A DNA stretch of 64,000 nt, taken from NCBI GenBank assembly GCA_041641295.1, contig JBEPYO010000001.1, forward strand, positions 1,056,001-1,120,000, given 5' to 3'. The stretch is from Nitrososphaerota archaeon. GTDB taxonomy: Archaea > Thermoproteota > Nitrososphaeria_A > Caldarchaeales > Calditenuaceae. This document shows, piece by piece, positions 34,566 to 57,586 of the stretch. The position numbers were made by a program, and so were the translations under genes. The notes below the pieces were generated by a model. The model did no database searches and had not been told where the DNA came from. It saw nothing but the letters and a program-made list of their open reading frames with translations. Position 1 is the stretch's first letter. The number at the start of each line of letters is the position of its first letter.

Positions 34566-35863
34566 CTACTCTCTGATCCCCAAGCTCCTGCGAAGTGAGA
34601 GTGACATAGTCTTCAATCTATCCTCATCTCCCGCCAGGTGCGCTGAGAGTGCTTCCACGATCATCTTGACATCCTTTTTGTCAAGCTCCTTCTTCTTTAG
34701 GAACTTGGAGACCCCCTTCCAACCTTTCTTTGCTATGGTTCGTGTGAGGCCTGGCATTAGGGCCTCGGACACAGCCAGTCTCAGGGCTTGGTCGCGGTGG
34801 ATGTGCTGTGAAGCCCTCTCGACAGCTGCTCTCAAGTCCAAGCGGACCTTGACCGGTTTGAACCTATTCTTAACAGACTCTGGGAGGGCATCGTATATCG
34901 ACCTATGTGTCAGAAGTGCTGTTTGATAGGGTAGCCCCGCGGCCTCGCTGAACTCGATGAACCCTTATGGTTCCTCTCCACGCCCACCCTCCGAATCCTA
35001 CTCGGACGGACAGCCCTAGTGAGGATTAGGAGCGGAACTCTGTCTAGTAGGCCCAGCTCAAGCCGTATCTCCTCGCAGCGTGTGGTCTCCATGTTATACA
35101 CCTTGCAGTTCCTCCAAGGTAGGCTGGCCGGGATTGCTGAGGGTAGGCCGGGGGCCGAGACCACCTCTTCGTCCAGCAGATAGGCGACTCCAGGCTCAGG
35201 CCCCCTCTCGACCAGCTCATCCAGGAAGATTTCCTCATATAGAGGAGTCTCGACCGCTTGGCCGACGCCATGCTGGTGCTGGCTCATTCTCAGGAAGTCC
35301 TCTAGCACAGTGGACATGTTGATTATGAAGGCTTCCCTCTCCGTCTCATTAGCGAAGCTGAACCTCTCCGAGAGTATTACTGAAGCCAAGTATGCTGTAA
35401 GCTCTGTACCGTTCTCCCTGACCACCCTGACAGCCGCTAGGACTTCTTCAACTGTTAGACCCATGCCCTTAACAATCCTGGAGAACCAGTCAGGAACTCT
35501 AGAAGTGGCAACATCTTCCCGCCCTGATGGTTCAGCCCCGCCAGCAGACCCGTGCCGGCTTTCCTCGATCTCGTTGAGAGCCCTCATCAAGCCGGAAGGG
35601 ACTATCCGCCCCGTCCGCGAGGTCGAGGCAGGCCGCCCTCTAGACCTCCACCAACCCCCAACAAAAATATGTGTAGTCGCGATGAACAGCACTATGGAAA
35701 CAGCTATGATCAGGAGGACAACTAGCCAGTCCCAGGAACTATCGGGAGGCTCCTCTCCCGACAATAGCCAGACAGGCTCGGAGCCTCCAACAGCGGCCAG
35801 TAGTATGGGGGTTTGAGCGAGCCCAGCAATTATGAGGGCGGCGAGTATTGAGACCCATGCCAT
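34566..35863 (-). pseudogene. Hypothetical membrane-anchored protein, probably split by a frameshift near 34.93-34.98 kb
   Basis: 34910..35863 has a signal peptide and TM; the frame of 34566..34841 stays open upstream and overlaps its end. Confidence 0.45.
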
Positions 35864-35989
35864 TAGCCTGTCCCCACCTCGTGCTATCTATTATCACACT
35901 ACAGAGTCGCTGAGGATGGATAAAAAAGGTTAGAGCCTATACGCGCTCAGCCATGTCAGGTCTTGAGGCTACCCCACCCCTACATACTC

Positions 35990-36034
35990 TTTGCACAACC
36001 CGTGTCACAATCCGCGTCACATTTTGTGTCACAA
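35990..36034. repeat. Four iteron-like 9-mers at 12-bp period
   Basis: TTTGCACAA 35990, GTGTCACAA 36002, GCGTCACAT 36014, GTGTCACAA 36026. Confidence 0.6.
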
Positions 36035-36438
36035 CTGCTTAAATCTGAGTCTCCGCGTGTCTCTCTCGGACAGTCCTCCAATGGGTCTCCGATGAGGAGG
36101 GCGTCCCCCCAGTCGGGCGATCGATCCAATGAGGCAGGGGATAGCCGAGGCGCCTCCTCCAGGGGCGGTGGAGGAGGCGTAAAGGAGCGGTCGCCCGATA
36201 GCAGAAGAGTCCGCGAAGGCATGGTGCAGTCCCACGCCTCTCGCGGGACGGGCCTCCGCCGCCGGGCTGAGGCCGCGCGCCCATAGAAGACGCGGCTATA
36301 GGTCTGGACAGAGAATATAGACGATGACCATAACCACATCCTTCTCCCCCGATTCTCACCCTAGTATGGGTGACCACCCCATACTCTCGTCATGGGTGGG
36401 GTGGCGGGGGGAGGGGTTTGGCTGGGCTCTGGGCCTTG

Positions 36439-36551
36439 GGACGGCCGCGTGGCTGACCACGCACCCGGACAGCCGCGTGGTTGACGGGTGTGACCCCGAA
36501 GCCATGCATGCCGGGACCGCCACTCCTGGGCAGGACAGCCGCGTGGCTGAC
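36439..36551. repeat. Three copies of a 19-nt hairpin motif GGAC(A/G)GCCGCGTGG(C/T)TGAC
   Basis: Copies at 36439-36457, 36467-36485 and 36533-36551; core CAGCC-GCGT-GGCTG. Confidence 0.8.
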
Positions 36552-36963
36552 GGACGCGTGGAAGGGGACGAGGGATGCCAAATAATTGCCGAAGATATCG
36601 GATGAGCCTTGATGTTTCTGAATGACTGTTCCCTGTGCCACGCTAGCTCCGAGAACTCAGAAGAACTCAGGTTCTCAGGAGATTACTGACGACCGGGGCG
36701 GCAACACCTGATCCGAGGGCGGGTCCGAGGGGGCGTGGAGGCTTCCCGGCTGTTGCCGGCCTCCCCAATATGTCTATGGGGAGGAGAAAATGGTCTCCCG
36801 TCCCTCATCGGACCCGCGCCCCGGGGTTGCAGGGGGGCCTGGTCCCGGGCCTAAGCACGACCCCCCTTCGGGGTCTCGACGCAGGGACCCGCGGACAATC
36901 CGCGGAGCCAGCCGCCAAATCAAAGTGGAAGAACTCGAGGATTAATGGGAGGATGACGAATAG

Positions 36964-37857
36964 GTGATGGGGATGATGCAGACCTCCGTGAGAGCTGTTA
37001 GAAGATTCTACATCGACATACACAGACTAGCTAATAAGAATAGAAAGAATAAGACTGAGGAGAGCTATCACATATACACCATTGATGGTGAGATGTTCGG
37101 CAAGGCGAGGACCTTGATGGATATTACAGCCAAAGAGGGAGACGAGCTCTACGTAGATACAATCCCGATAGAGCTCACAGACGAGTTCATTGAGATGCTG
37201 AGGAGAGGTGTTAGGGTCTTCTATTTGAGAAGACCAACATTGATAGCGAGGAAGAGAAAGGAGTTGGGATTGTCTAAGACTAGTAGAAACGATCTCAGAG
37301 CTATGATGACGCTAGAGCCTAAATGGTTCATAGAAGTCGGTGAAGACTTTCTGGTGATTAGAAGGCTAGCTGCCACGTTCAGAAGTCTATTAAAGACTCA
37401 TGTGAGCCTTTTGAATAGGGCTAAGGCCCTACAGGAGGCTGAGAGGAAGATTCTGATAGATTCTGTCAAGTCCCTCGAGAAATCTATGAGTGATATGGCT
37501 ATGTTGATTGTCGCAGAGGCGGAGAAGAGGATGCCAGCCTACCGTAAAGTGGTCGAAGCTCTAGGAATCTCCGGCGACAACTATCTATTTGCTAAGGAGG
37601 CTCTAGCAGAAATCATGCCATACATTGACAGAAGCACATCGTGTAGAAGGATTATGAAGTTATTAGGCCTCTATAGAGGACATAGAGGTGTTGACAAGTT
37701 CTACAATAAACCGGCTAGGAGCGCTCTTTCCAGACTGACAGCAGCGTTACTGAACAATACATATCACAGAGCAAAGGACGAGGAGAAAATACTGCGAAGA
37801 ATATGGACAACAATAAAACAATCGGAGCCCCAGGAAAGGCTGGGGGCACCGGCCTAG
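36964..37857 (+). CDS. IS110/TasR-like protein (RuvC-like N-terminus, coiled coil, Nop-like C-terminus lacking the IS110 catalytic Ser motif)
   Basis: YIDIH, YVDT, P..I...R..LGLSKTSRND (cf. KTDxxDA), IRRL...RSLLK...LLNR, LGISG...LAEI, LGLY...YNKPARSAL; no GLxPxxxxSG. Confidence 0.7.
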   Translation: MMGMMQTSVRAVRRFYIDIHRLANKNRKNKTEESYHIYTIDGEMFGKARTLMDITAKEGDELYVDTIPIELTDEFIEMLRRGVRVFYLRRPTLIARKRKELGLSKTSRNDLRAMMTLEPKWFIEVGEDFLVIRRLAATFRSLLKTHVSLLNRAKALQEAERKILIDSVKSLEKSMSDMAMLIVAEAEKRMPAYRKVVEALGISGDNYLFAKEALAEIMPYIDRSTSCRRIMKLLGLYRGHRGVDKFYNKPARSALSRLTAALLNNTYHRAKDEEKILRRIWTTIKQSEPQERLGAPA

Positions 37858-37997
37858 ACAGCAGGGAAAAACCCTAGACGGCCGGTGCCCGAAAAGATAT
37901 AGGTGGTAGAGAAACTCTCTACCGCCCCCTCAATTTATAGCCCGGTCGTCCTTTCCTAGGGGTTCCTAGGTGCTGTCTGGCAGGCCTGCCCCCAGCC
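37838..37997 (+). ncRNA. Candidate dual-guide hairpin RNA (stem-loop tigRNA/bridge-RNA-like)
   Basis: Nested helices GGCTGGGGGCA/TGCCCCCAGCC, TAGACAGCA/TGCTGTCTG, ACGGCCGG/CCGGTCGT and GGTGGTAGAGA/TCTCTACCGCC; internal loop with CCC-GAAAAGATA-TAG and CCC-CTCAATTTA-TAG. Confidence 0.7.
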
Positions 37998-38222
37998 AAA
38001 CCCTCCCCTATCTCTCCCTCCCAATTCTTGCCTCACACCAGTATAGGATTCCTTCTCGAGCTTAGCTACTAAGAGAGTATAATCCTACCCACGAGACCCG
38101 GTTAGCTACCCTGCGAGTTTTAGTCTCGCTGAGAAGCCACTGAATTACGCCTAGTCTGTGTCACCTATCAACAACTATTACAGGCTTACCATCACAAATG
38201 TCTAGTACCCTTCTTAAGAATG

Positions 38223-38363
38223 TTAGGGCAGTGACGATGGGTCTACTCCTGGATGCGTATATGTGTATATAGCTGTTATCTCTCTAAATCCACACCTATT
38301 GCAGACCAACATGTATACTATGCTGCCGTAGACCTTCTCTACAGTCTCGTCTACGACACCCAT
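38223..38363 (-). CDS. 46-aa ORF with a CxxC half zinc ribbon (possibly a remnant)
   Basis: MGVVDETVEKVYGSIVYMLVCNRCGFREITAIYTYTHPGVDPSSLP. Confidence 0.35.
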   Translation of the reverse strand: MGVVDETVEKVYGSIVYMLVCNRCGFREITAIYTYTHPGVDPSSLP

Positions 38364-38669
38364 CCTCCTAGGCCTCCTCTTCGGCCCTGAATAAAATCCT
38401 CAGTCTATGAACCATCTCTAATACTCTCTCTAGCAGCATAATTTCAGAAAATATCTCTCACATATATCCCCAAGGCTAAGATCAGCTATAACAGAACAAC
38501 AGCATACAACCTCTCAGAAGGACTATACCTATTGGTTCAGAACAGTTTGAGAAAGACTATACTACATGGTTCGTTCAAAGATATGCATAACAAAGTGAGA
38601 CAACTACAAGGCCTTGAACTGTCTCTAAAAATCTTAAATAAAAGTTGACAGCACCCTGCAAACCATCCG

Positions 38670-38707
38670 TTAAATATAAATTGAGCGGGCTTCCTTTTTC
38701 AGCCCGC
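38670..38707 (+). promoter_or_regulatory. TATA box of the aro operon plus palindrome GCGGGCT-N9-AGCCCGC
   Basis: TTAAATATAAAT at 38670-38681, ~30 nt before ATG 38708; inverted repeat at 38685-38707. Confidence 0.65.
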
Positions 38708-38797
38708 ATGAGTAGGGGGAGGGGCGTAGGTCGTAGCTACTTAACACCTCTATGGGGTACTACGACCTATGCCTATTTCTTTGGACCGATTGACTAG
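38708..38797 (+). CDS. Candidate aromatic-rich leader peptide (29 aa)
   Basis: MSRGRGVGRSYLTPLWGTTTYAYFFGPID followed by TAG TAG; directly upstream of the aro operon. Confidence 0.65.
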   Translation: MSRGRGVGRSYLTPLWGTTTYAYFFGPID

Positions 38798-38851
38798 TAG
38801 GTCCTCTTCTCCCCCCTCCCCCCTGCTCTGCGGATGTGTGGTGTATGTACC

Positions 38852-39904
38852 ATGTCTAGGTTAGGTGTAGCTATACTCGGAGCGACGGGGATGGTTGGCC
38901 AAATATACGTGCAGATGCTGAGCAAGCATCCATGGTTTGAGATTAGGGCTGTGACGGGGAACTCGACGGTGGGCAAGACGCTCAGAGAGGCTTACCGAGG
39001 CAGGGGCCATGTGCCGGAGAAGTATGCCGACATGGAGGTTCTGCCCTCAGACCCATCTAAGATAGACGCCGACCTGGTCTTCAGCTGTCTTCCAACAAAA
39101 TCTGCCAGAGAGGTTGAGCCCAAGTTCGCAGCTGCCGGCTTCCCGGTTGTAAGCGACTCGTCAGCCCACAGATACCTGCCCGACGTTCCTCTAATCATAC
39201 CGGAGGTAAACCCAGAGCATCTTGACTTGATAGATGCCCAGAAGAGGAGGCGCGGCTGGGACGGCTTCATAGTAACAACTCCCAACTGCACTACCGTCGG
39301 ATTCGCGACCCCCCTCAAACCACTAGCCGATGACTTCGGCCTCAGATACGTCAACGTTGTGACGATGCAGGCGGTCTCGGGGGCGGGCTACAACGGCGTG
39401 CCGTCGATGGCTATCTTGGGAAACATTATCCCCTATATTGAGGGGGAGGAGGCGAAAGTCTCTGAAGAGCCTAGAAAGATTCTGGGCAGGCTGGTTGACG
39501 GTGAGGTTCAGCCCATGGATATTCCAATTGATGCGACCTGTATGAGGGTGCCGACGATTGTAGGCCACCTCGAATCAGTCCAGGTTGAGCTTGGCAGGGA
39601 CGCCTCCGTGGAGGAGGTTGTAGACTCGCTGGCGGGATTTATCGGGCTGCCTCAGAAGCTGGAGCTACCGACCGCGCCTAGACGCCCGATAAATGTTCTC
39701 ACTGATGAGGAGAGGCCTCAGCCTCGGCTGGACGCGGATGCAGGCGAGGTACCGGGGATGGTTATCTCTGTCGGCAGGGTTAGAAAGGGTAGAAAGCCGG
39801 GCACGGTGATGTTCGTCACGTTGAGCCATAACCTTATAAGAGGCGCTGCCGGCGGCGCTATATTGACCGCTGAGCTGCTCTACGCTTTGAGGAGGTTGGA
39901 TTAG
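38852..39904 (+). CDS. asd: Aspartate-semialdehyde dehydrogenase
   Basis: ILGATGMVGQ, PEVN, PNCTT, QAVSGAG, HNLIRGAAG. Confidence 0.97.
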   Translation: MSRLGVAILGATGMVGQIYVQMLSKHPWFEIRAVTGNSTVGKTLREAYRGRGHVPEKYADMEVLPSDPSKIDADLVFSCLPTKSAREVEPKFAAAGFPVVSDSSAHRYLPDVPLIIPEVNPEHLDLIDAQKRRRGWDGFIVTTPNCTTVGFATPLKPLADDFGLRYVNVVTMQAVSGAGYNGVPSMAILGNIIPYIEGEEAKVSEEPRKILGRLVDGEVQPMDIPIDATCMRVPTIVGHLESVQVELGRDASVEEVVDSLAGFIGLPQKLELPTAPRRPINVLTDEERPQPRLDADAGEVPGMVISVGRVRKGRKPGTVMFVTLSHNLIRGAAGGAILTAELLYALRRLD

Positions 39905-40704
39905 TGATGGTGTCGGGTAAGAAGGTCAGGCTTTCGAGACTGACAGAGCGTGGGAGGATGCTCTGCATTCCCATGGACCACGGAATAACCGTCGGGCCAA
40001 TGAAAGGGCTTGACACAATATACAAGACGATCCGCGAGGTGGAGAAGGGTGGGGCTACAGCGTTCCTTGTCCAGAAGGGGATAGTGAAGCACATGCCTGA
40101 GCCTCCGCAGATCGGGTTCATAATCCATGTATCGGGAAGCACCTCGCTGGGCCCAGACCCCAACTGGAAGGTTCGCGTCGGAGGAGTGAAGACCGCACTC
40201 CTGCTGGGTGCCGATGGCCTCTCAGTTCACATAAACATAGGCAGCAAGGCTGAGCCCGAGATGCTGAAGAAGCTCGGAGAGGTGGCGGACGAGTGCGAGT
40301 CTTGGGGTGTCCCGCTGATAGCTATGATGTATCCGAGGGGTGAGGGAATCAAGGATCCGAACGACCCGAACGTGCTGATGCATGTCGCGAGGGTTGGTGC
40401 TGAGCTGGGGGCTGACATAGTTAAGGTGCCCTACAGCGGGAGCGTGGATACGTTTAGACGGGTTGTTGAGGCCTGTCCTGCGCCGGTCGTCATGGCAGGA
40501 GGTCCAAAGATGGATGACGACTTGGCGGTCTTGAGGATGGCTCGCGAGGCTATGGATGCTGGCGCGATGGGGGTAACCATAGGTAGGAACGTCTTCATGC
40601 ATGAGAGACCGGCGGCAATCGTCAGGGCGCTACGCGCAATAGTAATCGAGGACAGGAGCGTAGAGGATGCCCAGAGCCTGCTTGGGCGTGAGCTTAGGGC
40701 TTGA
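39904..40704 (+). CDS. aroA': 2-amino-3,7-dideoxy-D-threo-hept-6-ulosonate synthase (DhnA-type aldolase)
   Basis: [30 protein letters not shown]; lies between asd and DHQ synthase II. Confidence 0.88.
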
Positions 40705-41699
40705 ATTCAAGCGGGTCTAAAGAGATAGTCATAGAAGTCTCTGACGAAGAGGAGGCTGAGGAAGCTGTAGCGGCCGGTGCCCCCATACTACTCTATACGG
40801 AGGGCGAGACGCCGGCAAACCTGAAAGTCCGTGCAAAGATATACTCTCTCGGCAGGGAGATTGTTCCAGTCAAGGTATCCAAGCCCAGCGACATTGATGA
40901 GATTGTTAGGCTGGCTCGGACGGGGGTTGGGTCAATACTGGTGGAGACCGCTGACATTAAGATTATTCCGTTGGAGAACATATTGGCCAGTCTTCAAGGG
41001 TCTGGGACGAAGGTTTTCGTGAGGGTTGGGAGTGTCGAAGAGGCTGAAGCCATGCTAGGAGTGCTTGAGAGAGGCGTTGACGGGGTTGTCTACCGGCCAT
41101 CCAGCCCGAGCGAGATTGGTCTTCTCCTCGATATTGTGAGGCAGGTGAGGAGGGTCGAGCTGAGGGCTGCTAGGGTGTCCGACGTCTTCGACGTTGGTAT
41201 GGGTGAGAGGGCGTGCGTTGACACGACATCGATGCTCAGGTATGGTGAGGGGATGCTTGTTGGCAGTATGGCTAGGATGCTCTTCCTCATACACAACGAG
41301 TCAGTGGGCTCAAAGTTCACTCCACCTAGACCCTTCAGGGTAAACGCGGGCGCGGTCCACCTCTACACTCTAGGCCCGACCGGTAAGACACTATACCTCT
41401 CTGAGCTCAAGTCGGGTATGCGGATCCTAATGGTGTCCAAGGATGGGTCTGCGAGAGTTGTCACTGTGGGTAGGGTGAAGATTGAGAGGAGGCCGATGGT
41501 GCAGGTCAACGCTGAGATAGACGGGGTCTTCGGCTCAGTAACGCTTCAGAAGGCTGAGACGATAAGGCTTCTGACAGCTAAGGGCGAGATAGTAGATGTC
41601 ACCTCACTCGCTCGGGGAGAGGAGATATTGGTCTGGCTCTCAAGTAAGGCTGCACGACACATGGGAATGGAGGTAGACGAGTTCATAGATGAGGTCTAG
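40701..41699 (+). CDS. aroB': 3-dehydroquinate synthase II
   Basis: IIPLEN, RACVDT, RPFRVNAGAVH, YLSEL, GRVKIERRP, QKAETIRL, RHMG. Confidence 0.95.
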   Translation: MNSSGSKEIVIEVSDEEEAEEAVAAGAPILLYTEGETPANLKVRAKIYSLGREIVPVKVSKPSDIDEIVRLARTGVGSILVETADIKIIPLENILASLQGSGTKVFVRVGSVEEAEAMLGVLERGVDGVVYRPSSPSEIGLLLDIVRQVRRVELRAARVSDVFDVGMGERACVDTTSMLRYGEGMLVGSMARMLFLIHNESVGSKFTPPRPFRVNAGAVHLYTLGPTGKTLYLSELKSGMRILMVSKDGSARVVTVGRVKIERRPMVQVNAEIDGVFGSVTLQKAETIRLLTAKGEIVDVTSLARGEEILVWLSSKAARHMGMEVDEFIDEV

Positions 41700-42402
41700 C
41701 CTAGCCGAGAAGGTCTGCGTCTCGATAATGCCCAGGAATATCGGAGAATTCGGACAGCTGTGCGAGAGGGCCTTAGAGCTTGGAGCTAGGCTGGTCGAGC
41801 TACGCCTAGACGGTCTACAGGAGGGTGAGATCGGTGGGGCGGCAAGACTGGTCCAAGACATGAGCATTAAAAAGATCATCACACTTCGGCCAAGCTGGGA
41901 GGGTGGACTCTACGCTGGGGACGAGCAGAAGAGATTGGAGCTTTTGAGACGGGTATCAGTGGATGCAGAGTATGTTGATCTTGAGCGCAGGACTGTAGAT
42001 GCTAATCCTAGGCTTGTGGAGGAGCTGCGAAATGTGGGGGTCAAGGTAATCTCCTCCAAGCACTATTTCGGCGAGGCTCCGTCTAGCCTTGAGCTGCGGA
42101 GGGTTGTTGCGGAGGGGTTGGGGATGGCGGATATAGTCAAGGTGGTTAATAATCCGGGGAAAGTGTCGGAGGCTATGGATATTCTCGCGCTCTACTCTGA
42201 GGCCTCTTTCAGGGGTAGGGTTATCTCGTTCAGTATGGGTGAGAGATGGTGCCTCACGCGGGTGCTCAGCGTCCTGCTTGGGGCGCCCTTCACATACGCA
42301 TCTCTACCCGGCCAGCCCGTGGCTCCAGGCCAGCCCAGCTTCCCCGATACTCTAGAGGCCTTGGAGGTGTTCCTGAAGAGTTGGCCCTCTTGGCAGTTAT
42401 AG
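41689..42402 (+). CDS. aroD: Type I 3-dehydroquinate dehydratase
   Basis: VELRLD, ITLR...EGG, SKHYF, FSMG, APGQ. Confidence 0.93.
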   Translation: MRSSLAEKVCVSIMPRNIGEFGQLCERALELGARLVELRLDGLQEGEIGGAARLVQDMSIKKIITLRPSWEGGLYAGDEQKRLELLRRVSVDAEYVDLERRTVDANPRLVEELRNVGVKVISSKHYFGEAPSSLELRRVVAEGLGMADIVKVVNNPGKVSEAMDILALYSEASFRGRVISFSMGERWCLTRVLSVLLGAPFTYASLPGQPVAPGQPSFPDTLEALEVFLKSWPSWQL

Positions 42403-43220
42403 GCTACCCGATATCTCACTCGGCCTCGCCGGTCATGCATAATGCAGCCCTCCGAGCCCTTAACATGCCTAACCGCTACATCGCAATAGAAGCCCGCCCA
42501 GAGAAGCTGCACGAGACCTTGAAGACACTCCACAGACTCGGCTTCAAAGGACTTAACATAACCATCCCACACAAAGAAGCAGCGGCCCAGGTCGCTGTCG
42601 TGCTCTCGGAGGAGGCCGAGACGATAGGCGCCGTAAACACGCTCAAGAGAGTGGAGGATGGCTGGACCGGATACAATACCGACGTCGAAGGCGTCGTGAG
42701 GTGCCTATCCACCCATGTTGAGGGACGTCCCGACCATGTGCTGGTCCTAGGAGCCGGTGGTGCGGCGGCAGCCGCCCTCTATGCCCTGTGGAGAATGGGT
42801 GCTGAGAGGGTGGTTATAGCCAACAGGAGCCGGGGGCGGGCCGAGGTGTTGGCCGGGCGATTCAGGAATAGGTTGGGGCTTAACATCAAAGTAATAGCGC
42901 TAGAGGGTGCCGGACGCGAGGCACGCAGCGCAGAGGTCATAATAAACGCGACACCCCTCGGCCTCACCTACCACGAAAGCCCTATAAGTCCAGGCGACAT
43001 AACCGGGCGCCACATAGTCCTCGACATGGTTTACTCTCCTGTGCCGACGCCACTCCAGAGGGCTGCCGCCAGAGCAGGCGCCCAGTATATTGACGGTGTG
43101 AAGATGCTTGTTGAGCAGGGGGCCAGGGCGTTCGAGATTTTCCACGGTGTCGAGCCTGACAGGTCTTTGATGGAGAGGGCTGTGAGAGCTTGGCTTGAGC
43201 GGCGCGGTGGGCCGGGATGA
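42381..43220 (+). CDS. aroE: Shikimate dehydrogenase
   Basis: GYPISHSASP, NITIPHK, GAVNT, NTD, GAGGAA, NATPLG; TTG start after GGAGGTG. Confidence 0.95.
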   Translation: MALLAVIGYPISHSASPVMHNAALRALNMPNRYIAIEARPEKLHETLKTLHRLGFKGLNITIPHKEAAAQVAVVLSEEAETIGAVNTLKRVEDGWTGYNTDVEGVVRCLSTHVEGRPDHVLVLGAGGAAAAALYALWRMGAERVVIANRSRGRAEVLAGRFRNRLGLNIKVIALEGAGREARSAEVIINATPLGLTYHESPISPGDITGRHIVLDMVYSPVPTPLQRAAARAGAQYIDGVKMLVEQGARAFEIFHGVEPDRSLMERAVRAWLERRGGPG

Positions 43221-44488
43221 TCGTGAGTGTCAGGGCTGAGAGGGTTTCCGGAGAGGTTAGGGCGCCGCCAAGCAAAAGCTACACTCACAGGGCAATCGCG
43301 GCGGCACTCCTAGCACCCGGAAAATCTCGCATATTCAACCCGCTATACTCTCGCGACACAGAAGCGACAATCAACGCCGCAAGACTCTTCGGCGCGATAC
43401 TCCAGCCCCAAAGGGATGGGATCGAGATAGAGGGTGTGGAGCGTCCCAAGACACCCGAGAACGTCATAGACGCGATGAACTCCGGCACTACGCTCAGAAT
43501 AATGACATGCATCGCAGGCCTTACCGAGAGGGGATACACCGTCCTGACCGGTGATGAGAGCCTCCGTAAAAGGCCGATGCAGCCTCTCCTAGACGCCCTC
43601 GGCCAACTGGGCATCAGGTCGTGGTCAGCGAAGCTCGACGGCACAGCACCAATAATCGTTGAGGGCGGAGAGATGGGGGGAGAGTGCAGTATCCGGGGGG
43701 ATATTAGCAGCCAGTTCGTCTCAGGCCTCCTCATAGCAGGACCAGCAGCCGAGAGGCCTATAGCCATCAACATTCAGGGAGACCTAGTCTCAAAACCCTA
43801 CGTCGACTCCACGATAGCGGTCCTCAGACTCTATGGCGCCAAGGTTGAGAGGGAGGGATACAGCCACTTCTACACAGAGCCCGGCGGCTACAGGCCAGCA
43901 GCCTTCACTGTTCCAGGCGACTATGGCCTGGCCGGCTTCATCTTGGCCGCTCCGCTGATGGTGGGTGGGCGGGTCAGGGTGGCTGGTCTTGACCCTGGTC
44001 TTCCGCAGGCCGACTACAGGCTGGTCGAGGTGCTGCGGGCTATGGGTGCAGATGTAAGGGAGGGGGATGGATTCGTCGAGGTGGGTGAGGCGTCTCTAAA
44101 GGGTGTAGACGTAGACCTGAAGGACTCCCCAGACCTCCTACCCATAGTCGCGGCCTTGGCGGCAGTTGCAGAAGGCGAGACAAGAATCCACGGCGTAAAG
44201 CATGCGAGGTTCAAGGAAAGCGATAGAATCCACGTAATAGCCACCGAGCTAGCCAAGACATCAATCCGCGTGGAAGAGGCACCAGACGGGATGGTCATAA
44301 GGGGTGGCAGGCTGAGAGGTGCCCGGCTGGACCCGCGCGGAGACCACAGACTCTTCATGGCATTCACCCTACTCTCACTGGCCACGCAGGGGCTCATCGA
44401 AGTCTTAGACCCAGAGTCAGCAGCAGTCTCCTACCCCAACTTCCTAGACGACCTCAAACTACTAGGGTGCGAGGTTGAGAAGTCATGA
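43217..44488 (+). CDS. aroA: EPSP synthase
   Basis: PPSKSYTHR, NSGTTLR, SSQFVSG, KESDRI, DHR. Confidence 0.97.
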   Translation: MIVSVRAERVSGEVRAPPSKSYTHRAIAAALLAPGKSRIFNPLYSRDTEATINAARLFGAILQPQRDGIEIEGVERPKTPENVIDAMNSGTTLRIMTCIAGLTERGYTVLTGDESLRKRPMQPLLDALGQLGIRSWSAKLDGTAPIIVEGGEMGGECSIRGDISSQFVSGLLIAGPAAERPIAINIQGDLVSKPYVDSTIAVLRLYGAKVEREGYSHFYTEPGGYRPAAFTVPGDYGLAGFILAAPLMVGGRVRVAGLDPGLPQADYRLVEVLRAMGADVREGDGFVEVGEASLKGVDVDLKDSPDLLPIVAALAAVAEGETRIHGVKHARFKESDRIHVIATELAKTSIRVEEAPDGMVIRGGRLRGARLDPRGDHRLFMAFTLLSLATQGLIEVLDPESAAVSYPNFLDDLKLLGCEVEKS

Positions 44489-45591
44489 GTGGAAACATTC
44501 TGGGTAAGAGGTTCGTGGTCGTGAGCTTCGGCGAAAGCCACGGCCGATGCGTCGGAGCGGTAGTGGACGGCTGCCCAGCGGGCCTAAGGCTCTCCGAACA
44601 GGACATACAGACCCTCTTAGACCTGAGGAGGCCTGGACAATCAATCGTCACCACGCAGAGAAGGGAGGAGGACAAGGTGGAGATTTTGAGCGGAGTCTTT
44701 AACGGCTACACCACCGGCGCACCTATCGCCATGCTAGTCTGGAACAAGGATGTGGTCTCCAGAGACTACGACAAGGTGTTGGAGACGCCGAGGCCGGGTC
44801 ACGCAGACTACTTTGCGAGGCTGAAGTACGGGGGCTTCAACGACCACCGGGGCGGCGGAAGGTTCTCGGGGAGGATAACTGCGGGCTTTGTTATGGCTGG
44901 AGCCATAGCCCTGAAGCTGCTGAAGCAGGCACTAGGGGTCGAAGTACTTGCTTACACTAAGCGTATAGCGGGCATCGAGGCTAAGCCCCTCCCCATAGAG
45001 ACTATCAGGGAGAAGAGGTGGCTTAACGAGGTAAGATGCCCAGACGAAAAGGCCGCAGAGGCCATGAAACGCGCAATCCTCGAGGCCAGGTCCTCAGGAG
45101 ACTCTGTGGGCGGAGTCATAGAGTGCGTAGCCCTAAACGTCCCGCCATGCCTCGGCGAGCCCGTCTTCGACTCACTGGACGCAGACCTCTCAAAGGCGCT
45201 GTTCAGCATACCCGCAGTGAAGGGTGTAGAGTTCGGAGCAGGGTTCAGGGCGGCGGATATGAAGGGGTCGGAGCACAACGACCCACTCGGAGTAATAGGC
45301 GGAGAGGTCAGGCCCTTGACCAACAACGCGGGCGGGATAGTCGGCGGCCTCTCAACAGGCAGGGAGATAGTCGTCAGAGTAGCGTTCAAGCCGGCAGCCT
45401 CTATATCTAAGCCCCAACACACACTCAACGTTAAGAAGAGGGAGGTGGAGGAGGTGGTCGTGACCGGGAGACACGATCCATGCGTCGTGCCGAGGGCAGT
45501 CCCAATCGTGGAATCGGTCGTCGGCATCGTCCTAGCTGACCACGCCCTCCGTGCAGGCCTCATACCACCAGTACTAAGAGGTGTAGAGTAG
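44485..45591 (+). CDS. aroC: Chorismate synthase
   Basis: FGESHG, RPGHAD, GGGRFSGR, GRHDPC. Confidence 0.97.
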   Translation: MSGNILGKRFVVVSFGESHGRCVGAVVDGCPAGLRLSEQDIQTLLDLRRPGQSIVTTQRREEDKVEILSGVFNGYTTGAPIAMLVWNKDVVSRDYDKVLETPRPGHADYFARLKYGGFNDHRGGGRFSGRITAGFVMAGAIALKLLKQALGVEVLAYTKRIAGIEAKPLPIETIREKRWLNEVRCPDEKAAEAMKRAILEARSSGDSVGGVIECVALNVPPCLGEPVFDSLDADLSKALFSIPAVKGVEFGAGFRAADMKGSEHNDPLGVIGGEVRPLTNNAGGIVGGLSTGREIVVRVAFKPAASISKPQHTLNVKKREVEEVVVTGRHDPCVVPRAVPIVESVVGIVLADHALRAGLIPPVLRGVE

Positions 45592-46986
45592 TTGGGTAGG
45601 GATGAGATCGAGCGCTTGAGAGAGGAGATAAGGGCGGTGACAGAGGAGATTATTCGAGCCATAGCCAAGAGGAGGCAGCTGGCGGAAAGGCTAGGCGAGA
45701 TAAAGAGAGAGCTGGGATTAGAGCCCGTCGACCTTGACGCGGAGTCGGAACTCAGAGCACAGGTAGCCAAGGCTGCAAAAGAGAGTGGCTTAGACTTGGA
45801 GACCGCCCAGAGGATGCTCAGCCTCCTCATACAAGACGCGATACTCGTCCAGCAGCCACAGAGCAAGCCCAAGATCACCCACATGGACGTCTTCAGGAGG
45901 GCCAAGCAGCTGGAAATGAGCGGCGAGAAAGTATACCACCTCGAAGTCGGTGAGCCGGACCTCGGGGCTCCAAGCCGTGTCGCGGAAGCCCTAAGCTGGG
46001 CGGCCATGAACGGCTTCGCAGCCTATGGTGAGGCTAAGGGTAGGCCGGAGCTGCGGAGGGCGATTAAAGACCTTCTCCGCGAGAGGCTTGGCGTAGACGT
46101 TTCGGAGGACCAGATAGTGGTCACGCCGGGAGGGAGATTCGCGGTATACTTGGCTGCCGCCTCCACGCTGAGGCCAGGCGACCAGGCTGTAATCATAGAC
46201 CCCTCATGGCCCCTTTACAAGCAAGTCGTCGAGATGATGCACTCTAGGAGCCTAGCAATACACACCACGCTGGAGGATGGCTGGCGCCCCAGGCAGGATG
46301 TGCTGGAGAAAATCCTTAGACAGAGGCCGCGGACGGTATTCCTAAACTACCCGAATAATCCCACAGGTGTAACGCTCAGACGCAACGAGTTAGAGGAGCT
46401 TGTCGACGAGGTAAGACGCGCAGGCGCATACCTAGTCAGCGACGAGGTCTACATGGACTACTGCTTCACAGACTTCACTTCAGCCCTCCAGACAGGGTAC
46501 GAGAAGACCATAATGATAAACTCGTTCTCGAAGAGCTGGGGGATGACAGGCTACAGGATAGGATACCTCGTGGCGAGCAGGGAGATAGCGGATAGGGCTG
46601 CCAGAATACTGTCCCAGCTAATAACCTGCGTCCCCGAGTTCATACAGATGGCCTCGATAAAGGCTATCGAGGATAGGGAGACACCTAGGAGATATGGCGA
46701 GATAATGAAGCGGCGGATAGAAATGGTGTGCAAGGAACTCGACAGAATCGGCGCAACATACGTAAAGCCTAACGGAGGCATGTACGTCTTCCCCAAGATC
46801 GGGGACGAAGGCTTCGACTCGGCAGAGTTCGCCCTAAACCTCCTAGAGACTGCCAAGGTCGCAGTTGCCCCAGGCACAGCATTCGGCGACTATCCAGAAT
46901 ACATCAGAATATCTGTGGGGCTAGGCGACGAAGACCTTAGGAAAGGATTACAAGTGCTAGCTGAAAACCTCCAGAAAACCCGATAA
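45592..46986 (+). CDS. Chorismate mutase (AroQ) fused to a class I/II PLP aminotransferase
   Basis: LREEI...IAKRRQLA..LGEIK...D; VGEPD, YPNNPTG, SDEVY, SFSKSWGMTGYRIG. Confidence 0.9.
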   Translation: MGRDEIERLREEIRAVTEEIIRAIAKRRQLAERLGEIKRELGLEPVDLDAESELRAQVAKAAKESGLDLETAQRMLSLLIQDAILVQQPQSKPKITHMDVFRRAKQLEMSGEKVYHLEVGEPDLGAPSRVAEALSWAAMNGFAAYGEAKGRPELRRAIKDLLRERLGVDVSEDQIVVTPGGRFAVYLAAASTLRPGDQAVIIDPSWPLYKQVVEMMHSRSLAIHTTLEDGWRPRQDVLEKILRQRPRTVFLNYPNNPTGVTLRRNELEELVDEVRRAGAYLVSDEVYMDYCFTDFTSALQTGYEKTIMINSFSKSWGMTGYRIGYLVASREIADRAARILSQLITCVPEFIQMASIKAIEDRETPRRYGEIMKRRIEMVCKELDRIGATYVKPNGGMYVFPKIGDEGFDSAEFALNLLETAKVAVAPGTAFGDYPEYIRISVGLGDEDLRKGLQVLAENLQKTR

Positions 46987-57490: not shown

Positions 57491-57493
57491 CAG

Positions 57494-57586
57494 TGGGCCC
57501 GGAGGGATTCGAACCCTCGACCTTCCGGTCTCTCCCGCCATACCTGTTATCAGCCGGACGCTCCAGCCAGGCTGAGCTACGGGCCC
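57494..57586 (-). tRNA. tRNA-Ile(GAT) with 18-nt intron at 37/38 (57530-57547), CCA not encoded
   Basis: GGGCCCG/CGGGCCC acceptor stem, D arm GCTC/GAGC, TCCGG-CTGATA[intron]A-CCGGA, GGTTCGAATCC. Confidence 0.93.

Follow-up and report, generated by a model that had tools for sequence, protein, structure and literature searches.

In bacteria, attenuation by leader peptides is textbook knowledge; the mechanism needs coupled transcription and translation and is represented in Escherichia coli by leaders of the trpL, pheL, hisL and thrL type. In the E. coli tnaC system, which involves Rho, the ribosome stalls at the stop codon of the leader in response to free Trp, and the catabolic tna operon is induced. 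For archaeal aromatic genes, TrpY acts as a DNA-binding transcription factor. Tar (TK0271) of Thermococcus kodakarensis is likewise described as a DNA-binding transcription factor that regulates aromatic genes (PMC6737238). Bacterial leader-peptide attenuators are covered in a comparative-genomics study (PMC1262725), and the accessible part of a preprint on the mycobacterial "Cys ribulon" describes leaderless polycysteine small open reading frames (sORFs) at which a stalled ribosome is proposed to remodel the mRNA (bioRxiv 10.1101/834739). In archaea, upstream open reading frames (uORFs) are said in passing to be regulatory as well in the excerpted text of a tool paper (PMC10219788), and small ORFs in Haloferax 5' UTRs are listed without function in the portion available of another study (PMC4983044). 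A full-text literature search, with subscription journals outside its range and absence in print therefore unproven, returned no precedent for an archaeal leader-peptide attenuator.

Here we describe the DNA upstream of asd in a Nitrososphaerota archaeon of the family Candidatus Calditenuaceae (Aigarchaeota/Caldarchaeales), whose members live in hot springs. The window is the whole stretch analyzed, 64,000 nt of contig JBEPYO010000001.1, and coordinates refer to it. We propose, with a probability of about 0.6, that this DNA specifies a translated, Tyr/Phe-sensing, cis-regulatory 5' leader of the asd–aro operon that is specific to Calditenuaceae, a reading drawn from comparative sequence analysis. 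An earlier note on the window had described a leader peptide rich in aromatic residues within a structured leader of the chorismate operon, and the uORF, the fold and the Pfam matches bear out a Tyr/Phe-rich peptide in the structured leader of a chorismate/Phe-Tyr operon. Its particulars hold as well: the uORF with six aromatic codons in 29 and a YAYFF cluster is present where it was placed; the near-leaderless ATG about 30 nt past the TATA box does lie at the distance that peaks genome-wide for leaderless starts; and the inner helix, the GGACC/GGTCC hairpin spanning the stop, and the helix between the G tract and the C tract all occur, with their reported positions, in the minimum free energy (MFE) fold. 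The features of the locus, all on the plus strand, are as follows.

38674–38681 (+): AT-rich, TATA-like promoter box, read from the sequence; its spacing to the ATG fits the genome-wide leaderless peak.
38708–38797 (+): uORF (leader peptide) of 29 codons plus TAG, kept in 8/8 congeners and probably leaderless.
38710–38723 (+): 5' strand of helix P1, the G tract, from the MFE fold and covariation; Shine–Dalgarno-like (GGAGG) in other genera.
38724–38736 (+): 5' strand of helix P2, from the MFE fold and covariation.
38760–38772 (+): 3' strand of P2, from the MFE fold, overlapping the uORF codons T-T-T-Y-A.
38768–38782 (+): Tyr/Phe codon cluster TAT GCC TAT TTC TTT (YAYFF), mostly single-stranded, between P2 and P3.
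38783–38804 (+): hairpin P3, GGACC (38783–38787) with GGTCC (38800–38804), from the MFE fold, with the stop codon (38795–38797) in its loop.
38814–38828 (+): 3' strand of P1, the C tract, from the MFE fold (with one bulge in P1) and covariation.
38841–38844 (+): GGTG, the likely Shine–Dalgarno sequence of asd, judged from the sequence.
38852–39904 (+): asd, aspartate-semialdehyde dehydrogenase, the first structural gene (Pfam PF01118 and PF02774).
39904–46986 (+): remainder of the operon, overlapping or abutting ORFs on a single strand, with Pfam matches.

The TATA-like box lies 26 nt 5' of the uORF ATG. Because its center, at about −30.5 from the A of the ATG, falls within the interval from −34 to −27, where AT-only 8-mers peak 5' of 307 crudely called ATG-start genes of the source genome (137 of 415 8-mers), the uORF ATG occupies a position typical of leaderless starts. 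Transcription would then begin at or just 5' of the uORF. Homology with congeners detected by blastn starts at the box itself (38672), with none before it. As a separate observation on the upstream flank, for which 35900–38670 was examined, congener synteny stops exactly at the promoter (38672). This flank comprises a G+C-rich segment of about 0.9 kb with no clear gene (36000–36950, GC up to 0.70), a 297-aa ORF matching no Pfam family (36964–37857), and about 0.8 kb of A+T-rich, ORF-poor DNA; the stretch 35900–38670 may be an insertion. The spacer between the TATA box and the uORF is occupied by a GCGGGC/GCCCGC inverted repeat (38685–38707), which is broken in two of the eight congeners (G005 and G001) and is probably not functional.

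The start of asd was placed at the ATG at 38852. An in-frame ATG further 5', at 38834, was rejected because one congener has no start codon there. The sequence around the asd Shine–Dalgarno, GTGTGGTG, is invariant in the eight congeners. Pfam matches give the order of the genes that follow asd as a DeoC-family aldolase, 3-dehydroquinate synthase II, dehydroquinase I, shikimate dehydrogenase, EPSP synthase, chorismate synthase and, at the end, a chorismate mutase–aminotransferase fusion. The operon is the archaeal aspartate-semialdehyde route to chorismate together with the Phe/Tyr branch. It is tied to that branch by the terminal fusion, and the position of the branch at the operon end matches the Tyr/Phe codons of the uORF. 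In the fusion gene (45592–46986, plus strand), a type II chorismate mutase domain (residues 9–88) precedes a class I/II aminotransferase. Shikimate kinase was not recognized among the ORFs scanned between shikimate dehydrogenase and EPSP synthase (42246–44488) and may be encoded elsewhere in the genome.

The uORF that opens at ATG 38708 encodes MSRGRGVGRSYLTPLWGTTTYAYFFGPID. Its aromatic richness is not beyond chance within one genome, since 55 of 2670 other small ORFs 5' of crude gene calls are equally aromatic when at least four aromatic residues in seven codons are required. What raises the uORF above chance, judged by comparison among genomes, is its conservation across 18 loci and not its aromatic content. 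A uORF of 21–29 codons is present at 18/18 family asd loci, which span four genera. In the source genus (g1) it has 27–29 codons in 8/8 species, and the ATG, G tract, P2, cluster, P3 and C tract are all kept in each of them. The other three genera (g2–g4) show the same layout at 10/10 asd loci with an ATG or GTG start located downstream, and examples of their peptides are MGRATSVTFGFTAYTYFYFWEG, VVLSSVNAFWFTTYPYFYFGN, VGSVNLTLIGFATYAYFYAWTN and MGADLRYTLGFTSDGRAYFYTDAP. The earlier note had suggested aligning asd upstream regions for a conserved uORF with aromatic codons and for compensatory base changes, and the outcome is positive at all 18 family loci. Its view that the codons cover all three aromatic end products stands in part: the Tyr/Phe cluster is conserved, whereas the Trp codon is found at its source-genome place in only 4/8 congeners, with Trp occurring 3' of the cluster in g2a and g4.

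The pattern of variation in and around the cluster resembles that of a translated frame. In 18/18 sequences, no codon other than TAT, TAC, TTT or TTC occurs in the three core columns of the cluster. This pattern requires about nine nucleotide changes or more, all of them within Tyr/Phe; as a rough neutral yardstick rather than a test, two of the nine single changes of a Tyr/Phe codon stay within Tyr/Phe. One species has TAT TTC swapped to TTC TAT, and the Gly four codons 5' of the cluster is encoded by GGT, GGC, GGG and GGA. Summed column entropy by codon position is 5.43, 4.94 and 7.36, the third position being highest. Length differences between genera 5' of the cluster amount to one and two whole codons, and the sole indel of +1 nt (in G002) lies 3' of the cluster and gives an earlier stop. 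Moreover, the start codon was replaced without loss of frame: where g1 has its 5'-terminal ATG, g4 has AAG, and GTA stands in g1 at the position of the GTG/ATG start of g2–g4, the two sites being 18 nt apart in both. The cluster frame has a start codon and a stop 5–8 codons past the cluster center in 18/18 sequences, with TAG, TAA or TGA in use. In g2–g4 the start lies 6–8 nt 3' of a GGAGG/GGGGG tract matching the 3' end of 16S rRNA, which reads ...GGATCACCTCC in the source genome. The peptide outside the Tyr/Phe run varies freely, so that the run is its sole conserved feature. Taken from these sequence patterns, translation of the uORF is probable.

An unlikely yet not negligible alternative is that the leader works as RNA only, as a structured 5' UTR element that offers a protein or small-ligand site or a thermostable structure, with an open frame that is incidental. 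In one variant, a multimeric RNA-binding protein would recognize the UAY/UUY triplets, set three bases apart, as a repeat motif, for which the GAG/UAG repeats bound by TRAP provide a parallel. The junction is nearly nucleotide-invariant within g1, as an RNA element would predict, and with the cluster region identical in 7/8 g1 species, selection on the RNA is not separable from selection on coding in that genus. However, such an element needs no in-frame start at a Shine–Dalgarno or leaderless distance, which is found in 18/18 loci, nor its in-frame replacement between genera. It likewise needs no multiple-of-three indels restricted to the 5' side of the cluster, no early stop past the cluster (seen in 18/18, with three different stop codons), and no restriction of variation to the four Tyr/Phe codons.

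The MFE structure of 38680–38860 has a free energy of −80.4 kcal/mol (z = −4.76; 1/200 dinucleotide shuffles as good), and in it the Tyr/Phe codons sit at the end of the P2 3' strand and in the single-stranded junction 5' of P3. In a 17-sequence alignment of related sequences fitted to a covariance model, as for all the structure counts given here, 94.1% of the cells in the three helices are paired, compared with 42.5–51.4% in slid controls; both-side changes occur in 16/33 pairs, and the covariation score was reached by 0/500 shuffles. One of the five covariation measures, that of further pair types, did not rise above shuffles (99/500). A 15-sequence alignment gave similar figures. P1 is paired in 97.7% of cells, and its five core G-C pairs are never flipped, which fits a G tract that doubles as a ribosome-binding site. 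P2 is paired in 93.5% of cells with both-side changes in 6/15 pairs, and P3 in 85.3% with both-side changes in 5/5 pairs. RNAalifold on a plain MAFFT alignment independently recovered portions of both P1 and P2, 6/15 pairs showing compensatory changes. Folded singly, 14/18 leaders contain P1 and P2 together in the MFE structure at both 37 and 75 °C; among the exceptions are three g2 species in which P1 is kept but the inner fold is a different one, and the g3 sequence, which folds differently. Strong covariation of this kind is also what an RNA-only element would show, whereas a match to a described RNA family is absent: a cmscan against Rfam 15 over 35500–39500 with E values up to 10 gave four weak matches, none of them within 38680–38860.

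The leader occurs throughout the family and was found nowhere else. Of 41 genomes searched at the DNA level, 36 had an asd match, and the leader portion aligned in 7/7 congeners. A covariance model built on the eight congeners detected the other genera, and a second model was used to establish the range. The second model gave one match per genome, always 5' of asd, in 17/76 genomes of the class, all of them Calditenuaceae, and 0/57 genomes of three sister families were matched. It found 16/18 other family members; the two misses are G017, the 19th family genome, which is 73% complete and has no asd match, and a divergent g3 genome, whose version of the leader was recognized by eye. Against asd loci from genomes and metagenomes, the model matched 7/7 from Calditenuaceae and 0/85 others. 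A metagenome scan with an asd alignment and very general peptide patterns returned only distant asd sequences (at most 53% identity), none with the leader. In the upstream regions of 16 sister-family asd genes there is no such leader, and these have either a plain promoter or an abutting upstream gene. Among these loci (L160–L175), the end of the preceding gene overlaps the asd start at nine f2/f3 loci and two f4 loci; a plain promoter with a near-leaderless asd start occurs at five f4 loci and also at L017 and L018.

A further reading, which we consider very improbable, is that the element is a separate small gene that only happens to lie beside asd and specifies either a stable small RNA or else a functional micropeptide. 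In favor of this are a promoter of its own and a fold that is compact and stable, and small ORFs in archaeal 5' regions are reported without an assigned function in the accessible part of one study (PMC4983044). Yet the leader is always directly 5' of asd and nowhere else, no terminator precedes asd in g1–g3, and the conservation of the Tyr/Phe run alone is typical of leader peptides and not of functional micropeptides. The leader is single-copy in the 1.56 Mb source genome, and a mobile element (MITE) was rejected on that ground. A tRNA identity was also discarded, there being none at the leader. The only tRNA found in the window is a tRNA-Ile with anticodon GAT on the minus strand (57493–57586), whose length of 94 nt suggests an intron.

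Next to the three conserved helices, competing ones were sought. In a segment duplex screen, only native pairs rose above shuffles (P1 in 15/15 sequences, P2 in 14/15, P3 in 6/15), and none of the 19 non-native segment pairs forms a conserved alternative helix, each reaching z < −2 in at most 3/15 sequences. Mutually exclusive terminator and antiterminator hairpins were not found, with P1, P2 and P3 coexisting. No run of four or more T is present between the C tract and asd in eight g1, six g2 and one g3 sequences, and T4–T5 runs between leader and asd occur only in the three g4 sequences. Because there is no alternative helix and, outside g4, no oligo-T, the leader is not a classical terminator/antiterminator device. 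Genus g4 has about 55 extra bases between leader and asd (L019:1935–2119, minus strand; L021:1303–1491, plus strand; L020:1935–2119, minus strand). They open with GAGGTG and ATGTCTA, resembling the asd start of the source genus, form in 2/3 genomes an ORF of 15–17 codons with a stop overlapping the asd ATG, and contain the only T4–T5 runs 3' of the leader.

We modeled the effect of a ribosome by folding the 18 leaders with 29 nt masked either around the cluster (stalled) or around the stop (terminating). P1 forms alike in the free, stalled and terminating folds. In this equilibrium modeling, the probability that the asd Shine–Dalgarno-to-AUG segment is unpaired changed by at most 0.01 in 17/18 leaders and, in constructs with 110 nt more of asd, by at most 0.05 in 18/18. 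Duplexes that would sequester the asd ribosome-binding site (segment pairs H-S, K-S, B-S and L-S) were no better than shuffles. An RBS-unmasking device is therefore not supported by the models. On the masked folds and the duplex screen, we rejected the idea that the C tract or the P3 3' strand masks the asd ribosome site. Pairing of the P2 3' strand with the first asd codons, seen by eye in g1 and in one g4 species, is unconserved, and the corresponding pair B-D did no better than shuffles; pseudoknots between loops and the Shine–Dalgarno, sought by eye, were inconsistent across species. Both the absence of classical alternative helices and a terminator and the lack of a predicted downstream change on masking count in favor of the RNA-only explanation.

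The same results bear on the switch that the earlier note had put forward, in which a stall at YAYFF breaks the inner helix, so that the G tract can cover the C tract, taken here as a C-rich entry site for FttA, and read-through is permitted. P1, the pairing on which it builds, is real and conserved with a core that is never strand-flipped, and archaeal factor-dependent termination of uncoupled transcripts exists (PMC13681488). However, the P1 and P2 segments are contiguous and do not compete; the two helices coexist in the MFE of 14/18 sequences, and a mask on P2 does not affect whether P1 forms. In addition, the review gives FttA a preference for U-rich and not C-rich RNA, and a C tract as its entry site therefore finds no basis in that text (PMC13681488). 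We regard this switch as very improbable.

What remains is that a ribosome on the uORF competes directly with P2 and P3, and that P1 shuts off further uORF initiation. In the proposed Tyr/Phe-sensing leader, the element's own promoter would drive a transcript that starts at or just before the uORF, and a ribosome would load cotranscriptionally and read the 21–29 codon peptide. As the Tyr/Phe run lies exactly between P2 and P3, this ribosome would have to open both helices. With charged tRNA-Tyr/Phe scarce, it would stall at the run, hold P2 and P3 open and cover the U-rich junction. With charged tRNA plentiful, it would reach the stop in the P3 loop and depart, and the closed three-helix fold would form; P1 would then bury the G tract, the uORF's ribosome-binding site, along with its start, so that sensing would be one-shot and cotranscriptional. 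The stalled, open state would raise operon expression. Both the stalling and this direction of regulation are what we infer from the arrangement.

How the stalled state would act on the operon is a matter of conjecture. FttA receives RNA directly from the polymerase, with a preference for U-rich sequence (PMC13681488), and our preferred guess, a tentative one, is that the stalled ribosome shields the U-rich junction or the nascent RNA from FttA/aCPSF1-type cleavage or termination. The stall-site junction is U-rich in most genera, and the proposal is weakened because the cluster is not U-rich in two g2 species (G011 and G013). An effect on asd translation initiation is somewhat less probable, and an effect on mRNA stability is less probable again. 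Improbable, too, is a more specific account, in which the leader would be the first archaeal ribosome-mediated amino acid sensor and would dispense with terminator and antiterminator hairpins: the UAY/UUY codons would double as a U-rich, single-stranded FttA/aCPSF1 target displayed by P2 and P3, the starved ribosome would shield the target and allow read-through, and P1 would make the sensor one-shot by burying the uORF ribosome-binding site.

Compared with the trpL/pheL type, the asd leader shares a short uORF that heads an amino acid biosynthetic operon and clusters end-product codons, a position of that uORF within conserved helices that a translating ribosome must open, and sequestration of the leader's own ribosome-binding site after folding. 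However, it is archaeal, lacks a terminator made of a GC hairpin and a U run, shows no alternative pairing (all three helices are mutually compatible), and has a leaderless start in one genus. As in tnaC with Rho, a termination factor could be denied a neighboring entry site by the ribosome on the leader ORF, and a pyrimidine-rich, unstructured tract lies 3' of the uORF; unlike tnaC, the stall would be at hungry codons, and both FttA/aCPSF1 and its site are conjectural here. Control of the Tar/TrpY type shares with this locus a regulated aromatic pathway in an archaeon, but acts through DNA-binding transcription factors, whereas what is conserved here is an RNA, transcribed and covarying, that contains a uORF. 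Judged from the available part of its description, the mycobacterial poly-Cys sORF is the nearest worked example: it too is a leaderless, first-cistron sORF with a run of codons for the amino acid that concerns the downstream genes. In that system, the duplex blocked by ribosome stalling is one that would sequester the downstream RBS, whereas in the asd leader no such duplex is seen and the modeled accessibility of the asd site is unchanged.

A second clear leader with cognate codons was not found in the source genome by a genome-wide scan together with inspection of the pheA and prephenate dehydrogenase loci. The upstream regions of the pheA operon and of prephenate dehydrogenase contain no leader. 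The unbiased scan for codon-cluster uORFs gave many matches, the ten most suggestive of which, T/I-rich, His-rich, Leu-run and aromatic-rich peptides among them, were rejected because they stand 5' of unrelated genes, namely those for an FAD oxidoreductase, ABC transporters, a tRNA methyltransferase, rhodanese, SRP54 and an MFS transporter. Intergenic long-range inverted repeats with stems of at least 10 number 30 among those listed, and two other G-rich inverted repeats have no comparable uORF. Outside the window, the trp operon (G000:C1:1034744–1034776; L146:1596–1628) is preceded, about 24 nt past a TATA box, by a 10-codon ORF with a GTG start, VISGGLVWSE. A uORF of 9–10 codons with a single Trp (V-x-x-G-G-L-V-W-x-x) is found there in 8/8 congeners, and a similar one in one g4 genome. 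It encloses an invariant 15-nt block, GGTGGTTTAGTTTGG, for which RNAalifold gives a weak hairpin only, and it may be a Trp-sensing leader or, equally, a protein operator.

An asd gene that heads a leader-controlled aro operon appears, from this comparison of genomes, to be an innovation of the family Calditenuaceae. A member of the family is in stable laboratory culture according to the accessible part of the report (PMC12979851), and experiments should therefore be feasible. The leader would provide a concrete, mutable system in which to ask whether ribosomes in archaea signal the charging state of tRNA to the machinery of transcription or decay and, if they do, how this is achieved in a domain where FttA is used in place of Rho.
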